Below are positions 2,825 to 14,846 of a stretch of 44,766 bases of DNA, piece by piece. The position numbers were made by a program, and so were the translations under genes. The notes under the pieces are model-generated. The model saw only the letters and a program-made list of their open reading frames with translations, ran no database searches and was not told the origin of the DNA. Every line of letters starts with the position of its first letter. Position 1 is the stretch's first letter. Source of the stretch: Vectrevirus DIJ06P1. Location of the stretch: sequence record OZ035817.1. The stretch is one strand, 5' to 3'.

Positions 2825-3103
2825 ATGGCTAATGATTATAGTAGTCAACCATTAACAGGTAAGTCTAAGAGAAAGCAGGTACAACCTGTAAGTGAAGAAC
2901 TAATGCTTCCGGTAATCAAAAAAGAGGAAGCTAGTAAGAAAAGCAATGCTATTAATGATGCCACCAAATCAGGTAAACAGAAAGGGGCCATGGTGTGCCT
3001 TGAAGTGGAAGGTGGTGTATTGAAGATTGCTATCGCGGTTGATGGCAAAGAAGATTCAGAGTGGAAGTTAGTAACAGCGAAACCAACTGTTATCCCAGTT
3101 TAA
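2825..3103 (+). CDS. hypothetical protein (paralog A of tandem pair)
   Basis: 92-aa ORF; shares SGKQKGAMV...IA(I/V)A block with the next ORF. Confidence 0.5.
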   Translation: MANDYSSQPLTGKSKRKQVQPVSEELMLPVIKKEEASKKSNAINDATKSGKQKGAMVCLEVEGGVLKIAIAVDGKEDSEWKLVTAKPTVIPV

Positions 3104-3121
3104 GAGAAGGAGGAAGATTAC

Positions 3122-3415
3122 ATGGCTAAATATGGTACTACAGGTTCTGTTACTGGTCAGGCTTTTCGAGTAAAAGCAGTACAAACTATTGCAACGGCAA
3201 TCCCTATGCCTGTTGTTGCTGAAGCAGACCTTAAGAAGAAAGATCACCCTATCAACATCAAACACCTGTCAGGTAAGCAGAAAGGCGCAATGGTTGCTGT
3301 TGAGAGAGATGACACAACCATGCATATTGCTGTTGCACGTGGTAGTGAACCAACAGACTCTTGGGATGTAACTGGTATGGAAGAGGACGCTGTCACTCCA
3401 GCAGGTGGAGAATAA
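3122..3415 (+). CDS. hypothetical protein (paralog B of tandem pair)
   Basis: 97-aa ORF after GAAGGAGGAAG RBS; same SGKQKGAMV motif as 2825..3103. Confidence 0.5.
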   Translation: MAKYGTTGSVTGQAFRVKAVQTIATAIPMPVVAEADLKKKDHPINIKHLSGKQKGAMVAVERDDTTMHIAVARGSEPTDSWDVTGMEEDAVTPAGGE

Positions 3416-3759
3416 TGCTTAACAAATACTTCAAGCGTCGTGAGTTCGCTTGCCGTTGTGGTTGCGGTACATCCACCGTTGATGCTGAATTACTACAGGT
3501 AGTCACAGATGTGCGTGAGCACTTTGGTTCTCCTGTAGTTATCACTTCGGGGCACCGCTGTGCTAAGCACAATGCTAATGTAGGAGGAGCTAAGAACTCC
3601 ATGCATCTTACTGGTAAGGCTGCTGACATTAAGGTACGAGGCATCTTACCTTCTGATGTACATAAGTATCTTACTGATAAGTACCAAGGCAAATATGGGA
3701 TTGGTAAGTATAACTCCTTTACTCATATTGATGTACGTGACGGGTGTGCACGATGGTAG
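3415..3759 (+). CDS. peptidase M15-type peptidoglycan hydrolase (candidate endolysin)
   Basis: ATG overlaps the upstream stop (TAATG); SGHRCAKHNANVGGAKNSMHLTGKAADI fits the SG(Y/H)R...GG...S.H..G.A.D zinc-peptidase signature as I recall it. Confidence 0.65.
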   Translation: MLNKYFKRREFACRCGCGTSTVDAELLQVVTDVREHFGSPVVITSGHRCAKHNANVGGAKNSMHLTGKAADIKVRGILPSDVHKYLTDKYQGKYGIGKYNSFTHIDVRDGCARW

Positions 3760-3867
3760 GTTGTGTTGCATGGTGTGAACGCATGGTTGCTAAGGCTTCA
3801 GAGGAAGGCAACTATGAAGATTGGCAGAACTACTCAACTTTATTAGCTCAATGGAAAGGGAGATGCA

Positions 3868-4017
3868 ATGAAAAAGCTGTTCAAATCTAAGAAGGTTGTA
3901 GGTGCACTAGTTGCATTGGCAATTGCTCTTGTTTCTGTAGGTCTTGGTGTAGACCTTGGCTCTGGCACGGAATCCTCTGTGACAGACGTGGTCTGCCAAG
4001 TGATCACCTGTGAATAA
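3868..4017 (+). CDS. small membrane protein, 49 aa
   Basis: ATG at 3868; hydrophobic core VVGALVALAIALVSVGLGV; below the ORF-track size cutoff. Confidence 0.3.
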   Translation: MKKLFKSKKVVGALVALAIALVSVGLGVDLGSGTESSVTDVVCQVITCE

Positions 4018-8796: not shown

Positions 8797-9461
8797 CCAA
8801 AGTCAAAATTTTGATGTAGGCGTGTGTCAGCTCTCTCGCCCTCGCCCTCGCCGGGTTGCCCCCATAGGGTGGCCTGAGGGAATCCGTCGAAGACGGGTAG
8901 GGCTGATGTACTCCTTCGCTAGTACAAGGGAGGCGGGGAATGCCTAGGAAGCGCTAGGGCACGCCTTAGTATTGGACAAGGTGATTGCCTTAGTGAAGCC
9001 TCTTAGTACATTCCTGAGGCCATTCAGGGCGTTTATGAGGCATTGACAGGGTGGATGGGTGTGGGCTATCTGTTCGTTTCGCTACGCTTCACTCACTGCT
9101 CCTCACTTCGTTCGTCGCTGCGGTAGCCTGATGTGTACCTTAGGTTATTACTTGATGGATAGCTTAGGTTATAGCTTAGTGACCTACCTTAGTTATAACC
9201 TTAGTGCATAGCTTAGTATCAGCTTAGTAGTGTACCTTAGTAAGTCTTAGTGTCTTCTCTTAGTGATTGCACATGCAAGCATGTAAGATGCCATTAGGTC
9301 GCGGTCGGTAGACCGCTAAAGAAGGAGAGTAGTAATAAGATGCAGTAGGAGGAACACCAGAAGCCTCGCCAACCTAGCCTATCCTAGCTCTGTATCTATT
9401 GCTTTTCCTTAGTCTCACATGATAGACAACCTATCTTATTCCTAGTGATGATAACTTAGTG

Positions 9462-9490
9462 TTGACAAGATAATCTTAGTGTAATACTAT
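9462..9490 (+). promoter_or_regulatory. candidate host sigma70 early promoter
   Basis: TTGACA, 17-nt spacer, TACTAT; upstream of the first early ORF. Confidence 0.45.
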
Positions 9491-9562
9491 GCATCACGTA
9501 GGCGGTGCTGAGGCACCTAGTAGCCAGCTAGTAAGGCATACGAAGAGACTAGCGCTTACATT

Positions 9563-9575
9563 GCTCTTTAACAAT
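9563..9575 (+). repeat. GCTCTTTAACAAT 13-mer, copy 1 of 3
   Basis: Exact 13-mer repeated at 10108 and 10320 in early non-coding leaders. Confidence 0.6.
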
Positions 9576-9633
9576 TTGCTTAGTGTAACCTATGTATGCC
9601 GTGGTTAATTACTTATTGAATGAGGGATTAACT

Positions 9634-9813
9634 ATGACATTAAACAACCGTGAATTATCCGTTCTCTTCACTCTGTTGTGCTACATGATTCGTAACAACG
9701 AATTGCTTACAGATGACGAGTTGGCACTGTATCACCGCTTTCTTAACGAAGGTTGGACCGATACAGTTAATCAATACCGTAACATGATAGATGAGTTGAG
9801 GGAGGGTAAATAA
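9634..9813 (+). CDS. hypothetical early protein
   Basis: ATG at 9634 after GAGGG; the ORF-track start at 9592 has no RBS. Confidence 0.4.
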   Translation: MTLNNRELSVLFTLLCYMIRNNELLTDDELALYHRFLNEGWTDTVNQYRNMIDELREGK

Positions 9814-10037
9814 TGTATCAACATGAGGTATTCTTTGAATCAGCTAGCGAAGCTATTCGCTTCCGTGATGATATGATGCAAGCTGGTGTAGGCGTTGATG
9901 TGTATCACTATTTGATAGATTACGACACTGAATATCACCGAGTTACCTTAGTATCTGAGTATGACAACCAAGTCATTACTGAGTATCTAGGCAGTGAAGA
10001 TTACGATTACGATGAAGTAATCACGACAAATCTCTAA
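9813..10037 (+). CDS. hypothetical acidic early protein
   Basis: ATG after GGAGGG, overlapping the upstream stop; acidic, Tyr-rich. Confidence 0.5.
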   Translation: MYQHEVFFESASEAIRFRDDMMQAGVGVDVYHYLIDYDTEYHRVTLVSEYDNQVITEYLGSEDYDYDEVITTNL

Positions 10038-10045
10038 ATTAACTG

Positions 10046-10074
10046 TTGACAGCCACGGCATACAAGGTTACATT
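10046..10074 (+). promoter_or_regulatory. candidate host sigma70 early promoter
   Basis: TTGACA, 17-nt spacer, TACATT; same architecture as T7 A-type early promoters. Confidence 0.45.
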
Positions 10075-10107
10075 AAGCATCAAGACGGCGACGTCTTTAA
10101 ACATCCC

Positions 10108-10120
10108 GCTCTTTAACAAT
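10108..10120 (+). repeat. GCTCTTTAACAAT 13-mer, copy 2 of 3
   Basis: Exact repeat, about 60 nt downstream of the 10046 promoter. Confidence 0.6.
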
Positions 10121-10319
10121 ACGGTTTGTGTCTTGATAGGCTAACTAACTAACTAAGGTAATTATCATGAAAGGTTTAATTTGTGTAGAACGTATGGTCA
10201 ATGGTAAACTTGAAATATTACCACTGGAAAACCAATCTAGCTTCAAAGAGTGGTATGGCTGTTTCTCACTGATTTAAGGTAAAGGCTGGCACTAGTCAGC
10301 CTATCAAGGCGCAAACCAA

Positions 10320-10332
10320 GCTCTTTAACAAT
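10320..10332 (+). repeat. GCTCTTTAACAAT 13-mer, copy 3 of 3
   Basis: Exact repeat, about 100 nt upstream of ocr. Confidence 0.6.
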
Positions 10333-10428
10333 TTGGATGGTAGCTTCTTAGTCTGGATAGGTTAAACCTAGGAGATTCTCTTGAGTCTCCTATAATGTAA
10401 CCTAACTAACTAAATGAGGATTAATAAC

Positions 10429-10788
10429 ATGGCTATGTCTAATATGACTTACTCTCAGGTTTACAACAACGCTCATGCTGCATTAGTTGAACGTATCTGG
10501 AATGATGCTATTGATTGTATTGATAACGCGCATGATGCAATCCATGATGTGGCGGATAGTGCTGTACCAATCTATTATGCTGACATCTTCTCCGTGATGG
10601 CGAGTGAAGGAATTGATCATTTCTTCGAAGACTCCGGCCTGATGCCAGACACTAAGGATGTAACGGTAGTATTGCAAGCCCGTATCTATGAGCAACTCAC
10701 AATTGATCTATGGGAACGTGTTCAGTATATGATTGTTGAATACATCAACTCCGCCGAATATTTAGAAGAAGAAGAAGAGGAAGAATAA
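10429..10788 (+). CDS. ocr: Ocr-like DNA mimic (anti-restriction, T7 gp0.3 homolog)
   Basis: ATG at 10429 after GAGGA; [42 protein letters not shown] and [15 protein letters not shown] match T7 Ocr as I recall it; poly-Glu C-terminus. Confidence 0.85.
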
Positions 10789-10893
10789 TATGGAAAAGCT
10801 ATACAACTTTATCTTTTCAGACGGTGTAACCCTGAAGTGTTCCCTACGATTCGCACAAATTCGTGAGGAAGTACTAGGCACTACATACAAACT

Positions 10894-10918
10894 ATTTAGC
10901 TGACACTATAAGAGAAGG
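10894..10918 (+). promoter_or_regulatory. variant phage-promoter-like sequence
   Basis: ATTTAGCTGACACTATAAGAGAAGG; position +1 is A rather than G, so function is uncertain. Confidence 0.35.
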
Positions 10919-10979
10919 CTTAACAAGGCGTTGCTACGGTAGCGCCTGATTAAACTTTCACTTACTAGGAGTTAAGACT

Positions 10980-11207
10980 ATGGATTTAGATAGCATCATT
11001 ATGGCATTTGCTCTTATTGGCTTAAGCTGGTGCTCCTATCACCTTTACCGTGAGTTCTTATTTGATAAAGCTAAACGCAAACTAAGAAAGGAAGGCGGTA
11101 ATTACCTTTGTGTAAGAGATGGGCTTGTAGAATACATTGCACCTAACGGCACGGAATGCGCCATTAGCAAAGATGCATTTATAGAAACGTGGCATTACAT
11201 CAAGTAA
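10980..11207 (+). CDS. hypothetical early protein with N-terminal hydrophobic segment
   Basis: ATG after AGGAG; 75 aa. Confidence 0.5.
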   Translation: MDLDSIIMAFALIGLSWCSYHLYREFLFDKAKRKLRKEGGNYLCVRDGLVEYIAPNGTECAISKDAFIETWHYIK

Positions 11208-11241
11208 CTAGCCTATAGCCTACCTGAGTGGGCTATGTGAT

Positions 11242-11264
11242 ATTTACTTACACTATATAAGGTG
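11242..11264 (+). promoter_or_regulatory. variant phage-promoter-like sequence
   Basis: ATTTACTTACACTATATAAGG; degenerate around +1. Confidence 0.3.
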
Positions 11265-11270
11265 ACTATT

Positions 11271-12155
11271 ATGACTACTGAAAACACCCTCCTGTCTGTT
11301 CGTGAAGCTGCAACCGCTGAGATCAAGCAACACTTAGACAATATCGGCACTTCTTACATCAAAGTTGGCGCTTGTCTTAATGAGTTACGCGGTGACTTTG
11401 AAGGTCAAAAAGACTTTTTGGCTTATGTAGAATCAGAATTTGGAATCAAGAAAGCACAATGTTACAAGCTGATGAGTGTAGCCCGTGTCTTTGAAGGCGA
11501 TGATCGCTTTAAAGGCGTGGCGATGCGTGTAATGCTGGCGCTTGTTCCTTTCGCTGATGAAAATATAATCATGGAGAAGGCCGCAGAACTCGCCGCAAAT
11601 GGCAAGCTGGACACTAATGCCGTAAACGCCCTGATTGAACCTAAGAAAGAGTCAAAGGCCGAAACGGTACAATCTAAGGCTGAGACAGTAAAACCGCAGG
11701 AGAACGCGACTGAGTCCGCAGAATTACAGGAAATGCAAGCGCCGCAGGTAGTGCCACCCGCGAGCGAGCAGGAGGCCGACGAATCAGCACCTTGGGAAGA
11801 GGAAAGCAAGCCGGAAGCGCCTAAGGCCGCGCCACTGGATAACACGGCTAACACCGAGAATGCCACTATTGCTGGTCTGCTGGCACAAATTAAAGCACTG
11901 ACCGAGCAATTACAGGTAGCTAATGACCGCATTGCCTCCTTAAGCAGCGCACGCGAAAGCAAGAAAGCAGCCGCACCTATGCTGCCGCAGTTCAAATCTT
12001 CCTGCTTCTACGCTCGCTTAGGCTTGAGCGCTGAGGAGGCAACGAAGAAAACAGCAGTTAACAAGGCACGCCGCGAACTGGTTAAGCTAGGCTATGGTGA
12101 AGGCCATGAAGCATGGGCCTTAATCTCTGAGGCAGTAGAAGAATTAACTAAGTAA
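11271..12155 (+). CDS. hypothetical early protein with Ala/Glu/Lys-rich low-complexity linker
   Basis: ATG at 11271 (GTG at 11262 possible); folded N-terminal part, long low-complexity middle, helical C-terminus; sits where T7 has host-takeover genes but shows no kinase motifs. Confidence 0.55.
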   Translation: MTTENTLLSVREAATAEIKQHLDNIGTSYIKVGACLNELRGDFEGQKDFLAYVESEFGIKKAQCYKLMSVARVFEGDDRFKGVAMRVMLALVPFADENIIMEKAAELAANGKLDTNAVNALIEPKKESKAETVQSKAETVKPQENATESAELQEMQAPQVVPPASEQEADESAPWEEESKPEAPKAAPLDNTANTENATIAGLLAQIKALTEQLQVANDRIASLSSARESKKAAAPMLPQFKSSCFYARLGLSAEEATKKTAVNKARRELVKLGYGEGHEAWALISEAVEELTK

Positions 12156-12218
12156 CCTTATCGGTGGCATCTTCTTAGGTGTCACCTATTAAGGTTTCTT
12201 TCACTAGGAGTAAACAAG

Positions 12219-14846
12219 ATGCAAGACTTACACGCTATTCAACTTCAACTTGAAGAAGAAATGTTTAACGGCGGTATCCGTCGCTTTGAAGCGGACCAAC
12301 AGCGCCAGATTGCATCCGGTAATGAATCAGACACGGCATGGAATCGCCGCTTATTGTCCGAGTTAATTGCGCCAATGGCTGAAGGTATTCAGGCATACAA
12401 GGAAGAGTATGAAGGTAAAAGAGGCCGTGCACCGCGTGCATTAGCTTTCATTAACTGCGTAGAAAATGAAGTGGCAGCGTATATCACGATGAAAATCGTT
12501 ATGGATATGCTGAACACGGATGTAACCTTGCAGGCTATAGCCATGAATGTAGCTGACCGCATTGAGGACCAAGTACGTTTTAGCAAGCTGGAAGGTCACG
12601 CCGCCAAATACTTTGAAAAAGTTAAGAAGTCACTTAAGGCAAGTAAGACTAAATCATATCGCCATGCGCACAACGTAGCGGTAGTGGCTGAGAAGTCAGT
12701 AGCTGACCGTGACGCTGATTTCTCCCGCTGGGAGGCATGGCCTAAAGACACCTTGCTGCAAATTGGGATGACCTTGCTTGAAATCTTAGAGAATAGCGTA
12801 TTCTTCAACGGGCAACCTGTCTTCCTCCGCACCTTGCGCACTAATGGCGGCAAACATGGTGTTTACTACCTACAGACTAGTGAACACGTAGGTGAGTGGA
12901 TAACTGCATTTAAAGAACATGTAGCGCAACTTAGTCCAGCCTATGCACCTTGCGTTATTCCTCCGCGTCCGTGGGTATCACCCTTTAACGGTGGGTTTCA
13001 TACTGAGAAAGTAGCAAGCCGTATTCGTCTGGTAAAAGGCAATCGTGAGCACGTCCGCAAGCTGACCAAAAAGCAAATGCCAGCGGTTTACAAGGCTGTT
13101 AACGCTTTGCAGGCGACTAAGTGGCAGGTTAATAAAGAGGTTTTACAGGTTGTGGAGGACGTTATACGTCTAGACCTCGGCTATGGTGTACCTTCCTTTA
13201 AACCACTCATCGACCGTGAGAACAAGCCAGCTAATCCGGTGCCGTTAGAGTTCCAGCACCTGCGAGGCCGTGAACTGAAAGAAATGCTTACGCCGGAACA
13301 ATGGCAAGCCTTTATCAACTGGAAAGGTGAATGTACTAAGCTGTACACCGCTGAAACTAAGCGCGGAAGCAAATCGGCGGCAACCGTTCGCATGGTCGGT
13401 CAGGCCCGTAAATATAGCCAGTTCGACGCAATCTACTTCGTGTATGCACTGGACAGCCGCAGCCGTGTATACGCGCAATCTAGCACACTCTCACCGCAAT
13501 CAAATGACTTGGGCAAGGCCTTGCTCCGTTTTACCGAAGGGCAGCGTCTTGATAGCGCTGAGGCGCTTAAGTGGTTTTTGGTGAACGGGGCTAATAACTG
13601 GGGTTGGGATAAGAAAACTTTTGACGTGCGCACTGCTAACGTGCTGGATAGTGAATTTCAAGACATGTGCCGCGACATTGCAGCCAACCCGCTGACCTTC
13701 ACTCAATGGGTGAATGCTGATTCCCCTTATGGCTTCCTTGCATGGTGCTTTGAATATGCGCGTTATCTGGATGCACTGGACGAAGGAACGCAAGACCAAT
13801 TCATGACGCACCTACCCGTCCATCAAGATGGTAGTTGCTCTGGTATCCAGCACTATAGCGCGATGTTACGAGATGAAGTAGGTGCGAAAGCAGTAAACCT
13901 TAAGCCTTCTGACTCCCCTCAAGATATTTATGGCGCGGTTGCGCAGGTTGTTATCCAGAAGAATTACGCCTACATGAATGCAGACGACGCAGTGACTTTC
14001 ACATCCGGAAGCGTCACACTTACAGGTGCAGAACTGCGTAGCATGGCTAGTGCGTGGGATATGATAGGAATCACTCGCGGATTGACCAAAAAGCCCGTAA
14101 TGACACTACCTTATGGCAGCACACGTCTAACCTGCCGTGAATCAGTGATTGATTATATCGTTGATTTAGAAGAAAAAGAGGCCCAACGGGCTATTGCGGA
14201 AGGGCGTACCGCCAATCCTGTACACCCTTTTGATAATGACCGTAAAGACAGCCTGACACCTAGCGCAGCTTATAACTATATGACAGCTTTAATCTGGCCT
14301 TCTATTTCGGAAGTGGTTAAAGCTCCTATAGTGGCAATGAAAATGATTCGTCAGCTTGCCCGTTTCGCAGCTAAAAGGAATGAAGGCTTAGAGTATACCC
14401 TGCCTACTGGCTTCATCTTGCAACAAAAGATTATGGCTACTGATATGCTCCGCGTATCTACTTGCTTGATGGGAGAAATCAAGATGAGTCTACAGATTGA
14501 AACGGACGTAGTAGATGAAACGGCAATGATGGGCGCTGCTGCTCCTAACTTTGTGCATGGTCATGATGCCAGTCACCTTATCTTAACGGTCTGCGACCTT
14601 GTTGATAAAGGGATTACATCTATCGCAGTAATTCATGATTCTTTTGGCACTCATGCAGGCCGTACAGCCGATCTACGCAACAGCTTAAGGGCAGAAATGG
14701 TGAAAATGTACCAAGGCCGTAATGCACTGCAAAGCCTGCTAGATGAGCACGAAGAACGCTGGTTAGTTGATACAGGAATCCAAGTACCAGAGCAAGGGGA
14801 GTTTGACCTTAACGAAATCTTAGTTTCAGACTATTGCTTCGCATAA
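12219..14846 (+). CDS. single-subunit DNA-directed RNA polymerase, SP6 type
   Basis: 875 aa; hallmark blocks [24 protein letters not shown] and IHDSFGTH; very close to SP6 RNAP as I recall it, consistent with the SP6-type promoters. Confidence 0.95.

Follow-up and report, generated by a model that had tools for sequence, protein, structure and literature searches.

Copies of an rrn-type boxA abut gene-bracketing long-range RNA helices in the early region of a Vectrevirus

Results

A 13-mer in the early leaders of the phage Vectrevirus DIJ06P1 is, judged by its sequence, an rrn-type boxA, i.e. a putative RNA site for NusB-NusE(S10). It occurs three times, and the first two copies each border directly on the 5' arm of a long-range RNA helix which shows covariation and has early genes between its arms. 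With boxA copies and abutting, gene-bracketing helices the early transcript is thus laid out like a miniature pre-ribosomal RNA.

Three boxA copies in the early leaders

The window analysed here is the whole 44.8-kb stretch of phage DNA (44,766 nucleotides, OZ035817.1). A first-pass annotation had described an exact 13-mer repeated three times in non-coding sequence upstream of early genes, two of the copies downstream of a TTGACA-type promoter. All of this was borne out. The 13-mer, GCTCTTTAACAAT, is located at 9563-9575 (copy 1), 10108-10120 (copy 2) and 10320-10332 (copy 3), always on the + strand and in intergenic leaders ahead of early genes. TTGACA-type promoters begin 101 nt upstream of copy 1 and 62 nt upstream of copy 2. 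The end of copy 1 is separated by 59 nt from gene 1 (ATG at 9634), that of copy 2 by 47 nt from a 36-codon ORF at 10167 and that of copy 3 by 97 nt from ocr (ATG at 10429). In this phage, a member of the K1E/K1-5/SP6 group, the host transcribes the early region, and every copy there has the sense orientation. A fourth copy was absent from the window even when two mismatches were allowed. The expectation for the exact 13-mer is 0.01 per shuffled window, and three copies were reached in 0 of 100 shuffles. Except for the shortness of the motif nothing speaks for chance repetition; it is refuted by the shuffle control and by the conservation of the motif in all relatives examined, and its probability is negligible.

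All 13 nt agree with the boxA in the rrn leader of E. coli. There, boxA is the NusB-S10 loading site of the rRNA antitermination complex, which speeds up RNA polymerase and makes it resistant to termination. The 13-mer is part of a 44-nt rrn leader segment that was present in all of 5426 E. coli genomes, with a median of 7 places per genome; in rrn it comes after promoter P2 and boxB, some 130-140 nt ahead of 16S. The functional boxA consensus is GYTCTTTAANA (PMC5725501), and in the 44.8-kb window nothing but the three copies matches it perfectly. The BoxA of rrnG is bound by NusB:NusE with a Kd of 5-8 nM (PMC2800207). As expected of a boxA, the copies run on the + strand together with the early genes and predicted host promoters are located upstream.

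The promoters are consensus predictions. P1 (TTGACA-17-TACTAT, 9462-9490, + strand) matched at 10 of 12 positions with a predicted start at about 9496-9498; P2 (TTGACA-17-TACATT) is at 10046-10074, + strand. The same consensus scan predicted no promoter ahead of copy 3. The first-pass annotation had offered three options for the 13-mer: a transcript 5' end, an RNA processing site or a protein-binding site. The first finds no support: the copies are located about 27-66 nt past the predicted starts, with copy 3 far from any promoter. A protein-binding site fits best, but on RNA, as the 13-mer matches the rrn boxA. RNA processing is taken up below.

Hairpins precede the boxA copies by 10-45 nt on the + strand. 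Folding placed GGUGC-UGAG-GCACC at 9504-9517 upstream of boxA-1 and AAGACG-GCGA-CGUCUU at 10082-10097, 10 nt upstream of boxA-2, both at a place comparable to that of boxB in rrn leaders; a further local hairpin at 10283-10302 is found upstream of boxA-3. None has similarity to rrn boxB. A boxC (UCUGUGUGGG), expected 18-19 nt after boxA, was absent near all three copies with up to two mismatches allowed. Because boxC is missing there and the hairpins are unlike rrn boxB, only boxA and the geometry are common with rrn.

The genes behind the boxes are read from the + strand. Copy 1 is followed by two ORFs of 59 amino acids (9634-9813) and 74 amino acids (9813-10037), which are also annotated in K1-5 and K1E and match phrog_9275 and phrog_6403. 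Copy 2 is followed by the 36-codon ORF (10167-10277), an ORF call without a family match. The first gene past the last boxA is ocr (10429-10788; phrog_2568, E 9e-47), an anti-restriction DNA mimic. Gene calls in the early region agree with the K1-5 and K1E records. An Rfam search of 8800-12300 in evalue mode yielded no family and weak chance matches only, among them mir-5879 on a hairpin at 10903-10974.

Long-range helices begin at boxA

The 27-31 nt which follow boxA-1 and boxA-2 pair with sequences 130-440 nt downstream. In helix 1 a gap of 1 nt lies between boxA-1 and the 5' arm, A1 (9577-9606, + strand; inverted repeats I10 and I16), and the 3' arm, B1 (10051-10079, + strand), ends 28 nt before boxA-2; the spacer and -10 of P2 overlap arm B1. 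In helix 2 the 5' arm, A2 (10123-10151, core 10123-10142, + strand), corresponds to the top inverted repeat, I1, and lies 2 nt after boxA-2; the 3' arm, B2 (10287-10317, core 10298-10317, + strand), ends 2 nt before boxA-3. Between the arms of each helix there are thus one or two small early genes, and the 3' arm stops 2-28 nt ahead of the next boxA. Arm A1 was also considered as an inverted promoter; this was rejected since the minus strand has no adjoining -35.

Helix 1 comprises 29 bp at -48.1 kcal/mol (RNAduplex) and helix 2 20-27 bp at -39.8 kcal/mol, compared with -24.8 +/- 3.9 kcal/mol for random probes and about -10 for non-cognate arms. Both appeared in the unconstrained minimum free energy and centroid structures of the 944-nt transcript with probabilities of 0.94 (helix 1) and 0.99 (helix 2). 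The hairpin at 10283-10302 overlaps the 5' part of arm B2 and competes with the outer pairs of helix 2. A sliding scan found energies rivalling that of helix 2 at 8932 (-39.4, a local hairpin) and at 11740 (-39.0, inside a gene). Duplex energy alone was therefore rejected as proof of helix 2, and its support is position and covariation.

This support came from a comparison across phages, in which 39 unique boxA-helix modules were collected. In these, a gap of 1-2 nt separates boxA from the 5' arm, and for most 3' arms the distance to the next boxA is 0-28 nt. Two further loci, L088 and L115, have a boxA and a marginal helix of about -36; they resemble nut regions of lambdoid phages and were left out of the module count. 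In class I (the helix 1 type) 92.1% of the cells were paired, compared with 22-42% when the arms were slid against each other; nine pairs had double changes, and covariation was 0.265 versus 0.134, a value reached in 0 of 500 shuffles. In class II (the helix 2 type) 90.8% were paired (94.7% in the main helix) versus 20-41% when slid; five pairs had double changes, again with 0 of 500 shuffles. As the aligned phages are related, these shuffle controls overstate independence. Across modules the arms contained 79 G.U pairs versus 9 A/C mismatches, an excess that points to RNA, and the + strand was the more stable one in 31 of the 39 modules.

Could the repeat instead be an element of the DNA, i.e. 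a protein site, a remnant of recombination or duplication of promoter-leader modules, or a stretch of homology for exchange with host rrn? The class I 3' arms do coincide with promoter DNA: they overlap the promoter spacer and -10, and TTGACA precedes the arm in nearly all class I modules, which places an extra DNA-level constraint on that arm. Further, the early regions are mosaic and pieces of the query match separately. Yet every copy in every phage examined is in the sense orientation, the balance of G.U over A/C in the arms is an RNA signature, and homologous recombination needs more than 13 bases. Since the sequences flanking the three copies bear no relation to one another, a recent duplication is excluded. 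We regard a DNA-level role as highly improbable.

For the arm that follows copy 3 the search gave no long-range partner (best -23). Instead, copy 3 precedes by about 11 nt a local, interrupted hairpin in front of ocr (10344-10419, + strand; -32.1 kcal/mol, z -3.4), as in T7, a candidate RNase III site of the T7 R0.3 type. The duplex length of helices 1 and 2 is sufficient for RNase III, and on the predicted structures both, together with the copy-3 hairpin, are plausible candidate substrates of this enzyme.

Processing, the option named first in the first-pass annotation, could have the 13-mer itself as the determinant for RNase III, RNase E or another nuclease, with no part for Nus factors. 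The 13-mer always adjoins duplexes long enough for RNase III, and in T3 it is about 29 nt ahead of the annotated R0.3; only by adjacency, therefore, is a link to processing plausible. For the motif itself it is not. RNase III needs duplex RNA, whereas the 13-mer is not part of the paired arms and should, by prediction, be single-stranded: over the full 944-nt transcript the boxA copies had unpaired probabilities of 0.65-0.74, compared with a mean of 0.38 for the whole RNA, and 0.76-0.84 was predicted in nascent RNA. Moreover, base for base it is the rrn boxA, for which nanomolar NusB:NusE affinity was measured with rrnG, and an Aeromonas phage carries the variant of the Aeromonas rrn-type leader (see below), as expected of a site for host Nus factors. 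A processing signal in the motif proper is thus very unlikely.

boxA is conserved across phages and appears to follow the host

The first-pass annotation had suggested a conservation check in related phages; its outcome was strongly positive. All of the 8 relatives first examined have 1-3 boxA copies, each on the sense strand, and so have 12 further phages. Searching for relatives with the RNA polymerase returned close relatives only; diversity was obtained by sensitive blastn and a pattern scan. Upstream of the boxA copies the sequences carry almost no information across phages, and in the most distant phages the match was confined to boxA-2 and its arm. In T7 the identical 13-mer is situated between promoter A3 and gene 0.3, in T3 and phiYeO3-12 ahead of R0.3. 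boxA is unannotated in the records of T7, T3, phiYeO3-12, K1E, K1-5 and SP6.

The boxA of the Aeromonas phage Tola is GTTCTTTAACAAT, a variant which is also present in an Aeromonas rrn-type P1/P2 leader. In phages with enterobacterial hosts the motif reads GCTC..., in agreement with E. coli rrn, and in Tola it reads GTTC..., in agreement with the Aeromonas leader. On these sequences the boxA variant tracks the rrn boxA of the host itself, with one variant switch as the basis.

Discussion

Comparison with rrn operons

In E. coli rrn operons our scan found that the 16S leader-trailer helix begins at the end of boxA (-49.8 kcal/mol) and that a second boxA follows the 16S trailer. RNase III cleaves helices of this leader-trailer type, and a model in which boxA acts as a tether has been published (PMC10250234; PMC4807359). 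The phage arrangement is alike in that boxA comes after a strong sigma-70 promoter and an upstream hairpin, and in that a helix of about 25-30 bp has its 5' arm directly after boxA and its 3' arm past the payload, whereupon a further boxA follows. It differs in the payload, which is one or two small protein-coding genes with 130-440 nt between the arms instead of a 1.5-kb rRNA. Furthermore, the phage lacks boxC and the boxB sequence of rrn, the arm sequences are unrelated and one 3' arm is promoter DNA. As the payloads are small protein genes and not rRNA, the phage helices would work like a leader-trailer helix but stand outside that family.

Comparison with other phages and with cellular boxA targets

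The first anti-restriction gene of T7, T3 and phiYeO3-12 has the identical 13-mer in the same place ahead of it. Copy 3 corresponds in position to the one boxA that T7 and T3 have before gene 0.3; together with its local hairpin and ocr it is the direct counterpart of the boxA/R0.3/gene 0.3 layout of the T7 group. In T7 and T3 a single boxA stands downstream of the three A promoters, and the RNase III hairpins are local throughout, whereas the subfamily of DIJ06P1 has two or three boxA copies, each followed by a long-range helix except the final one ahead of ocr or of the gene in its place. A strong partner was also seen for the last boxA detected in SP6, Kpp-61, Peggy and CB5. The boxA of T7 and of T3 has no long-range helix (best -22 to -26), hence the coupling of boxA and helix is not obligatory.

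This bears on the alternative that boxA is solely a Nus-dependent signal for speed and against Rho, and that the helices are independent RNase III or stability elements whose adjacency is meaningless, with no tether, chaperone or reloading. It would accommodate the boxA without a long-range helix in T7, T3 and Tola. BoxA alone was enough for antitermination in reporters and CRISPR arrays (PMC4807359; PMC7665894), and insertions of 6-12 nt after the rrn boxA had modest effects only (PMC10250234). However, if the elements were unrelated the tight, maintained spacing of boxA and arm in 39 modules would be unexpected, and the 16S helix of E. coli shares the geometry. We consider this alternative rather unlikely, yet it is the one to be taken most seriously.

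A phage-borne boxA on an early transcript is reminiscent of nutL and nutR of lambda, where boxA recruits NusB-S10. In the lambda N leader an RNase III site follows nutL. The lambda boxA is a weaker form, CGCUCUUA, and it needs the phage N protein on boxB; that of DIJ06P1 is the full rrn form, and an N-type boxB is not evident. The NusB:NusE affinity of the nutR BoxA-spacer is lower, with an entry that begins at 90 nM compared with 5-8 nM for rrnG (PMC2800207). The suhB 5' UTR and the CRISPR leaders likewise have a consensus boxA upstream of a non-rRNA transcript (PMC5725501; PMC7665894). Those are single sites without an abutting helix, which serve repression or the protection of untranslated RNA against Rho.

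Repression as in suhB, i.e. Nus-dependent occlusion of the ribosome binding site of the next gene, might be invoked for the phage copies too. Such control works with a boxA within about 50 nt of the start codon and also farther away (PMC5725501), and copies 2 and 1 end 47 and 59 nt before a start codon. At copy 3 the distance to ocr is 97 nt with a large hairpin in between. A lytic phage would hardly gain from repressing its earliest anti-restriction genes, and the helices and the T7/T3 arrangement would be left unexplained. A repressor function is therefore scarcely credible.

A proposed mechanism

The reading we prefer, and hold to be probable as a whole, combines an rrn-type boxA on the early RNA with Nus loading, RNase III excision, tethering and reloading. 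boxA would be read on the nascent early RNA made by the host RNA polymerase. NusB-S10 would bind each copy and nucleate a Nus/SuhB complex, with NusA and NusG recruited as well, on elongating RNA polymerase. With Nus factors loaded, early transcription would be rapid and would resist Rho across the extended leaders and very short ORFs, and little time would be lost before it reached ocr and the gene for the phage RNA polymerase. The helices would be substrates for RNase III, and the enclosed cistrons might be excised as pre-16S rRNA is. While tethered to the polymerase, boxA may hold the 5' arm at the RNA exit channel until transcription has produced the 3' arm. Cleavage would break this tether, which is why another boxA would be needed past each 3' arm, as after the 16S trailer. 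This scheme of tethering and reloading would explain the number of copies, three, as well as their placement. Two points count against this reading. We know of no report of Nus dependence of T7-group growth. For rRNA antitermination in vivo, moreover, the Nus factors were found to be largely dispensable (PMC4807359).

Significance

The boxA motif as such is already known; the architecture of boxA-helix cassettes appears to be undescribed. The boxA of the T7 group has been remarked on in the T7 literature. Our literature search met no paper linking boxA to T7- or SP6-group phages, and an earlier mention is possible. Should the proposed mechanism be true, a large group of lytic phages would draw on the host's machinery for rRNA transcription within seconds of infection, with a bearing on the speed at which ocr and the phage RNA polymerase are produced. 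In T7, host transcription helps to draw the genome into the cell; by analogy, recruitment through boxA may also affect the rate of genome entry.

The cassettes are a small, non-essential and easily mutated model for a question of ribosome biogenesis, namely whether boxA tethering by Nus/SuhB promotes formation of long-range helices and RNase III processing (PMC10250234, PMC4807359). The readout would be mRNAs of 200-450 nt in place of an essential rRNA. In practice, annotations of phage genomes should include boxA with its arms, and the cassettes are possible parts for Rho-proof, self-excising expression units.

Tentatively, and with somewhat more doubt than confidence, the notion may be extended to the early operons of SP6/K1-5-like phages in general as mimics of pre-rRNA, in which anti-Rho action and speed are joined with an RNA chaperone, RNase III excision and reloading of boxA. 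The order within such a cassette would be boxA, 5' arm, small genes and 3' arm, and cleavage by RNase III would yield end-paired mRNAs. It would be the first use of the chaperone or looping function of the rrnTAC on messenger RNAs. A 99-kb contig, L050, is possibly a further phage with cassettes of this kind.

The repeated 13-mer is identical to the E. coli rRNA-leader boxA

The first-pass annotation had described three copies of a 13-mer in the early leaders. This was accurate with regard to positions, leaders and promoters. GCTCTTTAACAAT matched exactly three times in the window (9563, 10108 and 10320; copies 1 to 3), always on the + strand, and a search of the window tolerating up to two mismatches returned no further copies. 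Repetition by chance was considered: 100 dinucleotide-preserving shuffles contained a mean of 0.01 exact copies, and three copies were reached in 0/100. Each copy resides in an intergenic leader of the host-transcribed early region. Two predicted TTGACA promoters, P1 and P2, precede copies 1 and 2, their -35 hexamers 101 and 62 nt upstream. Copy 3 is without a promoter of its own; ocr, the anti-restriction gene, follows 97 nt downstream.

At the sequence level the 13-mer equals boxA in the rrn leader of E. coli. A search for a 44-nt stretch of rrn leader that includes the 13-mer found it in 5426 of 5426 complete E. coli genomes, with a median of 7 sites. In the one rrn copy examined, the motif is situated about 130-140 nt upstream of 16S rRNA, with the rrn promoter P2 and the boxB hairpin preceding it. 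The functional boxA consensus is GYTCTTTAANA (PMC5725501). Copies 1-3 are its only perfect matches in the 44.8-kb window; one-mismatch matches were no more frequent than expected by chance and lay on the opposite strand. The rrnG BoxA is bound by NusB:NusE with a Kd of 5-8 nM, far tighter than the lambda nut boxA (PMC2800207), and, as described in PMC10250234, BoxA is both required and enough for the rRNA antitermination complex to assemble.

boxA is conserved in related phages

The phage belongs to Vectrevirus, in the SP6/K1-5/K1E group of the Autographiviridae. The window probably is a circularly permuted complete genome (44,766 bp versus 43.7-45.3 kb in close relatives). Phages EEc4, 6948 and AAPEc6 share 94-95% identity with its early region, and the product of the RNA polymerase gene (12219-14846) is 98.5% identical to its K1E counterpart.

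Conservation in relatives, proposed at first pass as a check, was observed. In T7 the only copy of the identical 13-mer (813-825) lies downstream of promoter A3 and ahead of gene 0.3; T3 and phiYeO3-12 have one copy each, about 29 nt upstream of the annotated RNase III site R0.3. That the 13-mer itself is a nuclease determinant was considered as a rival reading and held unlikely. SP6 has two copies and K1E, K1-5, mutPK1A2, F5M1D, K22PH164C1 and phD2B three each; several Klebsiella, Salmonella, Citrobacter and Proteus phages have two, Cronobacter phage Peggy and Pectobacterium phage CB5 one. DNA-level roles were also considered; in the phages examined, every copy is on the sense strand.

Among 39 unique boxA contexts the 13-mer plus the following N-T-G was essentially invariant (TG at +15/+16 nearly so), and the upstream flank was nearly information-free. 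The continuation AATCTGG of T7, T3, phiYeO3-12 and many other phage copies is shared with the E. coli rrn spacer boxA. Aeromonas phage Tola has the variant GTTCTTTAACAAT, which is also found after rrn-type tandem promoters at a contig end of Aeromonas eucrenophila. This single variant switch would be the behaviour expected of a host Nus-factor site.

Long-range helices lie between consecutive boxA copies

The sequences directly 3' of boxA-1 and boxA-2 (copies 1 and 2) are complementary to sequences just 5' of the next boxA. Helix 1 pairs 9577-9606 with 10051-10079 (29 bp, one bulge, two G.U pairs, -48.1 kcal/mol) and encloses the genes 9634-9813 and 9813-10037. Helix 2 pairs 10123-10151 with 10287-10317 (20-bp core, -39.8 kcal/mol) around the ORF 10167-10277. 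The best partners of random 34-mers reached -24.8 ± 3.9 kcal/mol, non-cognate arms about -10. In a sliding scan of 8900-12200 helix 1 was clearly top-ranked; two candidates equaled helix 2 in energy, a local hairpin at 8932 and a site within a gene at 11740. Therefore, helix 2 is supported by position and covariation, not by energy. When the 944-nt transcript 9497-10440 was folded without constraints, both helices were present in the MFE and centroid structures (z -6.8). Ensemble probabilities were 0.94 for helix 1 and 0.99 for helix 2, and the three boxA copies were mostly unpaired. In order, the early layout starts with a promoter and a hairpin; next come boxA with its 5' arm, the genes and the 3' arm, then a second boxA with 5' arm, one gene and 3' arm, and lastly the third boxA, a local hairpin and ocr.

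P2 and helix 1 share DNA (10046-10079), the promoter's spacer and -10 coinciding with the helix's 3' arm; because of this the segment is under promoter and RNA-pairing constraint. RNAs initiated at P2 lack this arm.

Further elements were noted nearby. Ahead of the early region, close to the presumed genome end, the sliding scan gave a stable local hairpin (8928-9000, -39 kcal/mol). Upstream of P1, at 9120-9290, short repeats containing CTTAG(G)T (ACCTTAGGTTA, AGCTTAGT and similar) form a dense array, which resembles the arrays that T7-like genomes carry beside their left-end terminal repeat. The interval between the genes for 37 aa (10790-10903) and 75 aa (10980-11207) holds a strong local hairpin of some 70 nt (10903-10974, z-score -5.8), which looks like a T7-type local RNase III site; an Rfam match to mir-5879, weak and on both strands, was judged spurious. 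An intrinsic-terminator-like hairpin with T-run (11214-11237) directly follows the 75-aa gene, before gene 6 and the RNA polymerase gene.

The helices covary in other phages

The identical unbiased partner scan was run on 20 other phage genomes. Apart from the final boxA upstream of ocr or its positional counterpart, each boxA had a partner of -35 to -53 kcal/mol; for the last boxA found, a strong partner was also seen in SP6, Kpp-61, Peggy and CB5. The scan returned no such long-range partner in T7, T3 and Tola. With sensitive blastn, the sole match of distant phages was to 10106-10170 of the window, i.e. boxA-2 and the arm after it.

After adding a pattern scan of viral contigs, 39 unique modules (boxA, 5' arm, enclosed genes, 3' arm) were collected, in two arm classes resembling helix 1 (class I) and helix 2 (class II). 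Alignments were not fitted to structure. In class I (21 sequences) 92.1% of cells were standard-paired versus 22-42% in slid register, with double-sided changes in 9 pairs (42 cells); the covariation score was 0.265 versus 0.134 shuffled, reached in 0/500 shuffles. In class II (11 sequences) 90.8% were paired (main helix 94.7%) versus 20-41% slid, with double-sided changes in 5 pairs and a score again reached in 0/500 shuffles. In both classes the shuffle controls overstate independence because the aligned phages are related. The duplexes contained 79 G.U pairs versus 9 A/C 1x1 mismatches, and the + strand was more stable in 31/39 modules. Therefore, pairing is selected in the sense RNA, not in DNA.

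Antitermination only, with a coincidental adjacency of boxA and helix, was considered as well. In the phage modules a gap of 1-2 nt separates boxA from the 5' arm, and between the end of the 3' arm and the next boxA there are usually 0-28 nt. The class I 3' arm also is spacer and -10 of the next early promoter, and almost every class I module has TTGACA ahead of this arm. In K1E, two class II modules lie in tandem (1663-2237), and both 5' arms can pair with one 3' arm (2192-2237), which makes alternative or competing helices possible in some relatives.

Comparison with the rrn operon and a possible mechanism

In an E. coli rrn operon the identical scan recovered the 16S leader-trailer helix (-49.8 kcal/mol), its 5' arm starting at the end of boxA and its 3' arm 15 nt past the 16S 3' end. 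Beyond the trailer and the tRNA, ahead of the 23S leader arm, comes a second boxA, GCTCTTTAAAAATCTGGAT; this 16S-23S spacer boxA continues with AATCTGGAT. The layout logic is the same, yet the phage payloads are small protein-coding genes, the hairpins upstream of boxA are unlike rrn boxB, the arms are unrelated to rrn arms, and no boxC, with up to two mismatches allowed, was found near the three phage copies. The double use of the class I 3' arm as promoter spacer and -10 also limits the parallel.

The rrn leader-trailer helices are cleaved by RNase III, and in a published model the polymerase holds boxA through NusB-S10, and the 5' arm thereby waits at the RNA exit channel for the trailer to emerge (PMC10250234; PMC4807359). 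By analogy, NusB-S10 and the Nus/SuhB complex would likely load at each phage boxA and let host polymerase cross leaders and very short ORFs quickly and with resistance to Rho. Helices 1 and 2 and the hairpin 10344-10419 are fairly likely RNase III sites. More tentatively, a tethered boxA might promote helix closure, and each boxA behind a helix might reload the complex after cleavage.

The boxA motif itself is well known. A single boxA in the T7 group had been noted before; the curated records of T7, T3 and phiYeO3-12 carry no boxA annotation. A literature search, with the original SP6 and K1-5 genome papers outside its scope, returned no description of multi-copy boxA with covarying long-range helices bracketing phage early genes. 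This coupling appears to be new; every functional step of the mechanism above is so far inferred. Established non-rRNA cellular targets of boxA are suhB (PMC5725501) and CRISPR arrays (PMC7665894); translational repression as in suhB was considered for the phage leaders as a further rival reading and held unlikely.

boxA on other viral contigs

Beside cI-like repressor genes, two IMG/VR contigs (L088, L115) carry a consensus boxA after a terminator-like hairpin. Lambdoid nut sites using the full rrn-type boxA are the probable explanation; nearby 'helices' had background-level energies and were rejected as modules. An apparently unrelated large phage contig of 99 kb with tRNA genes (IMGVR_UViG_3300035492_000062, 2973-3911) has three sense-strand boxA copies directly after a TTGACA-17-TATTAT promoter. 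Downstream of the copy at 3208, an arm (3221-3252) pairs with 3753-3785 (-38.9 kcal/mol) around a 156-aa ORF. Because of these copies and the paired arm, boxA-plus-helix cassettes may extend beyond the Autographiviridae.
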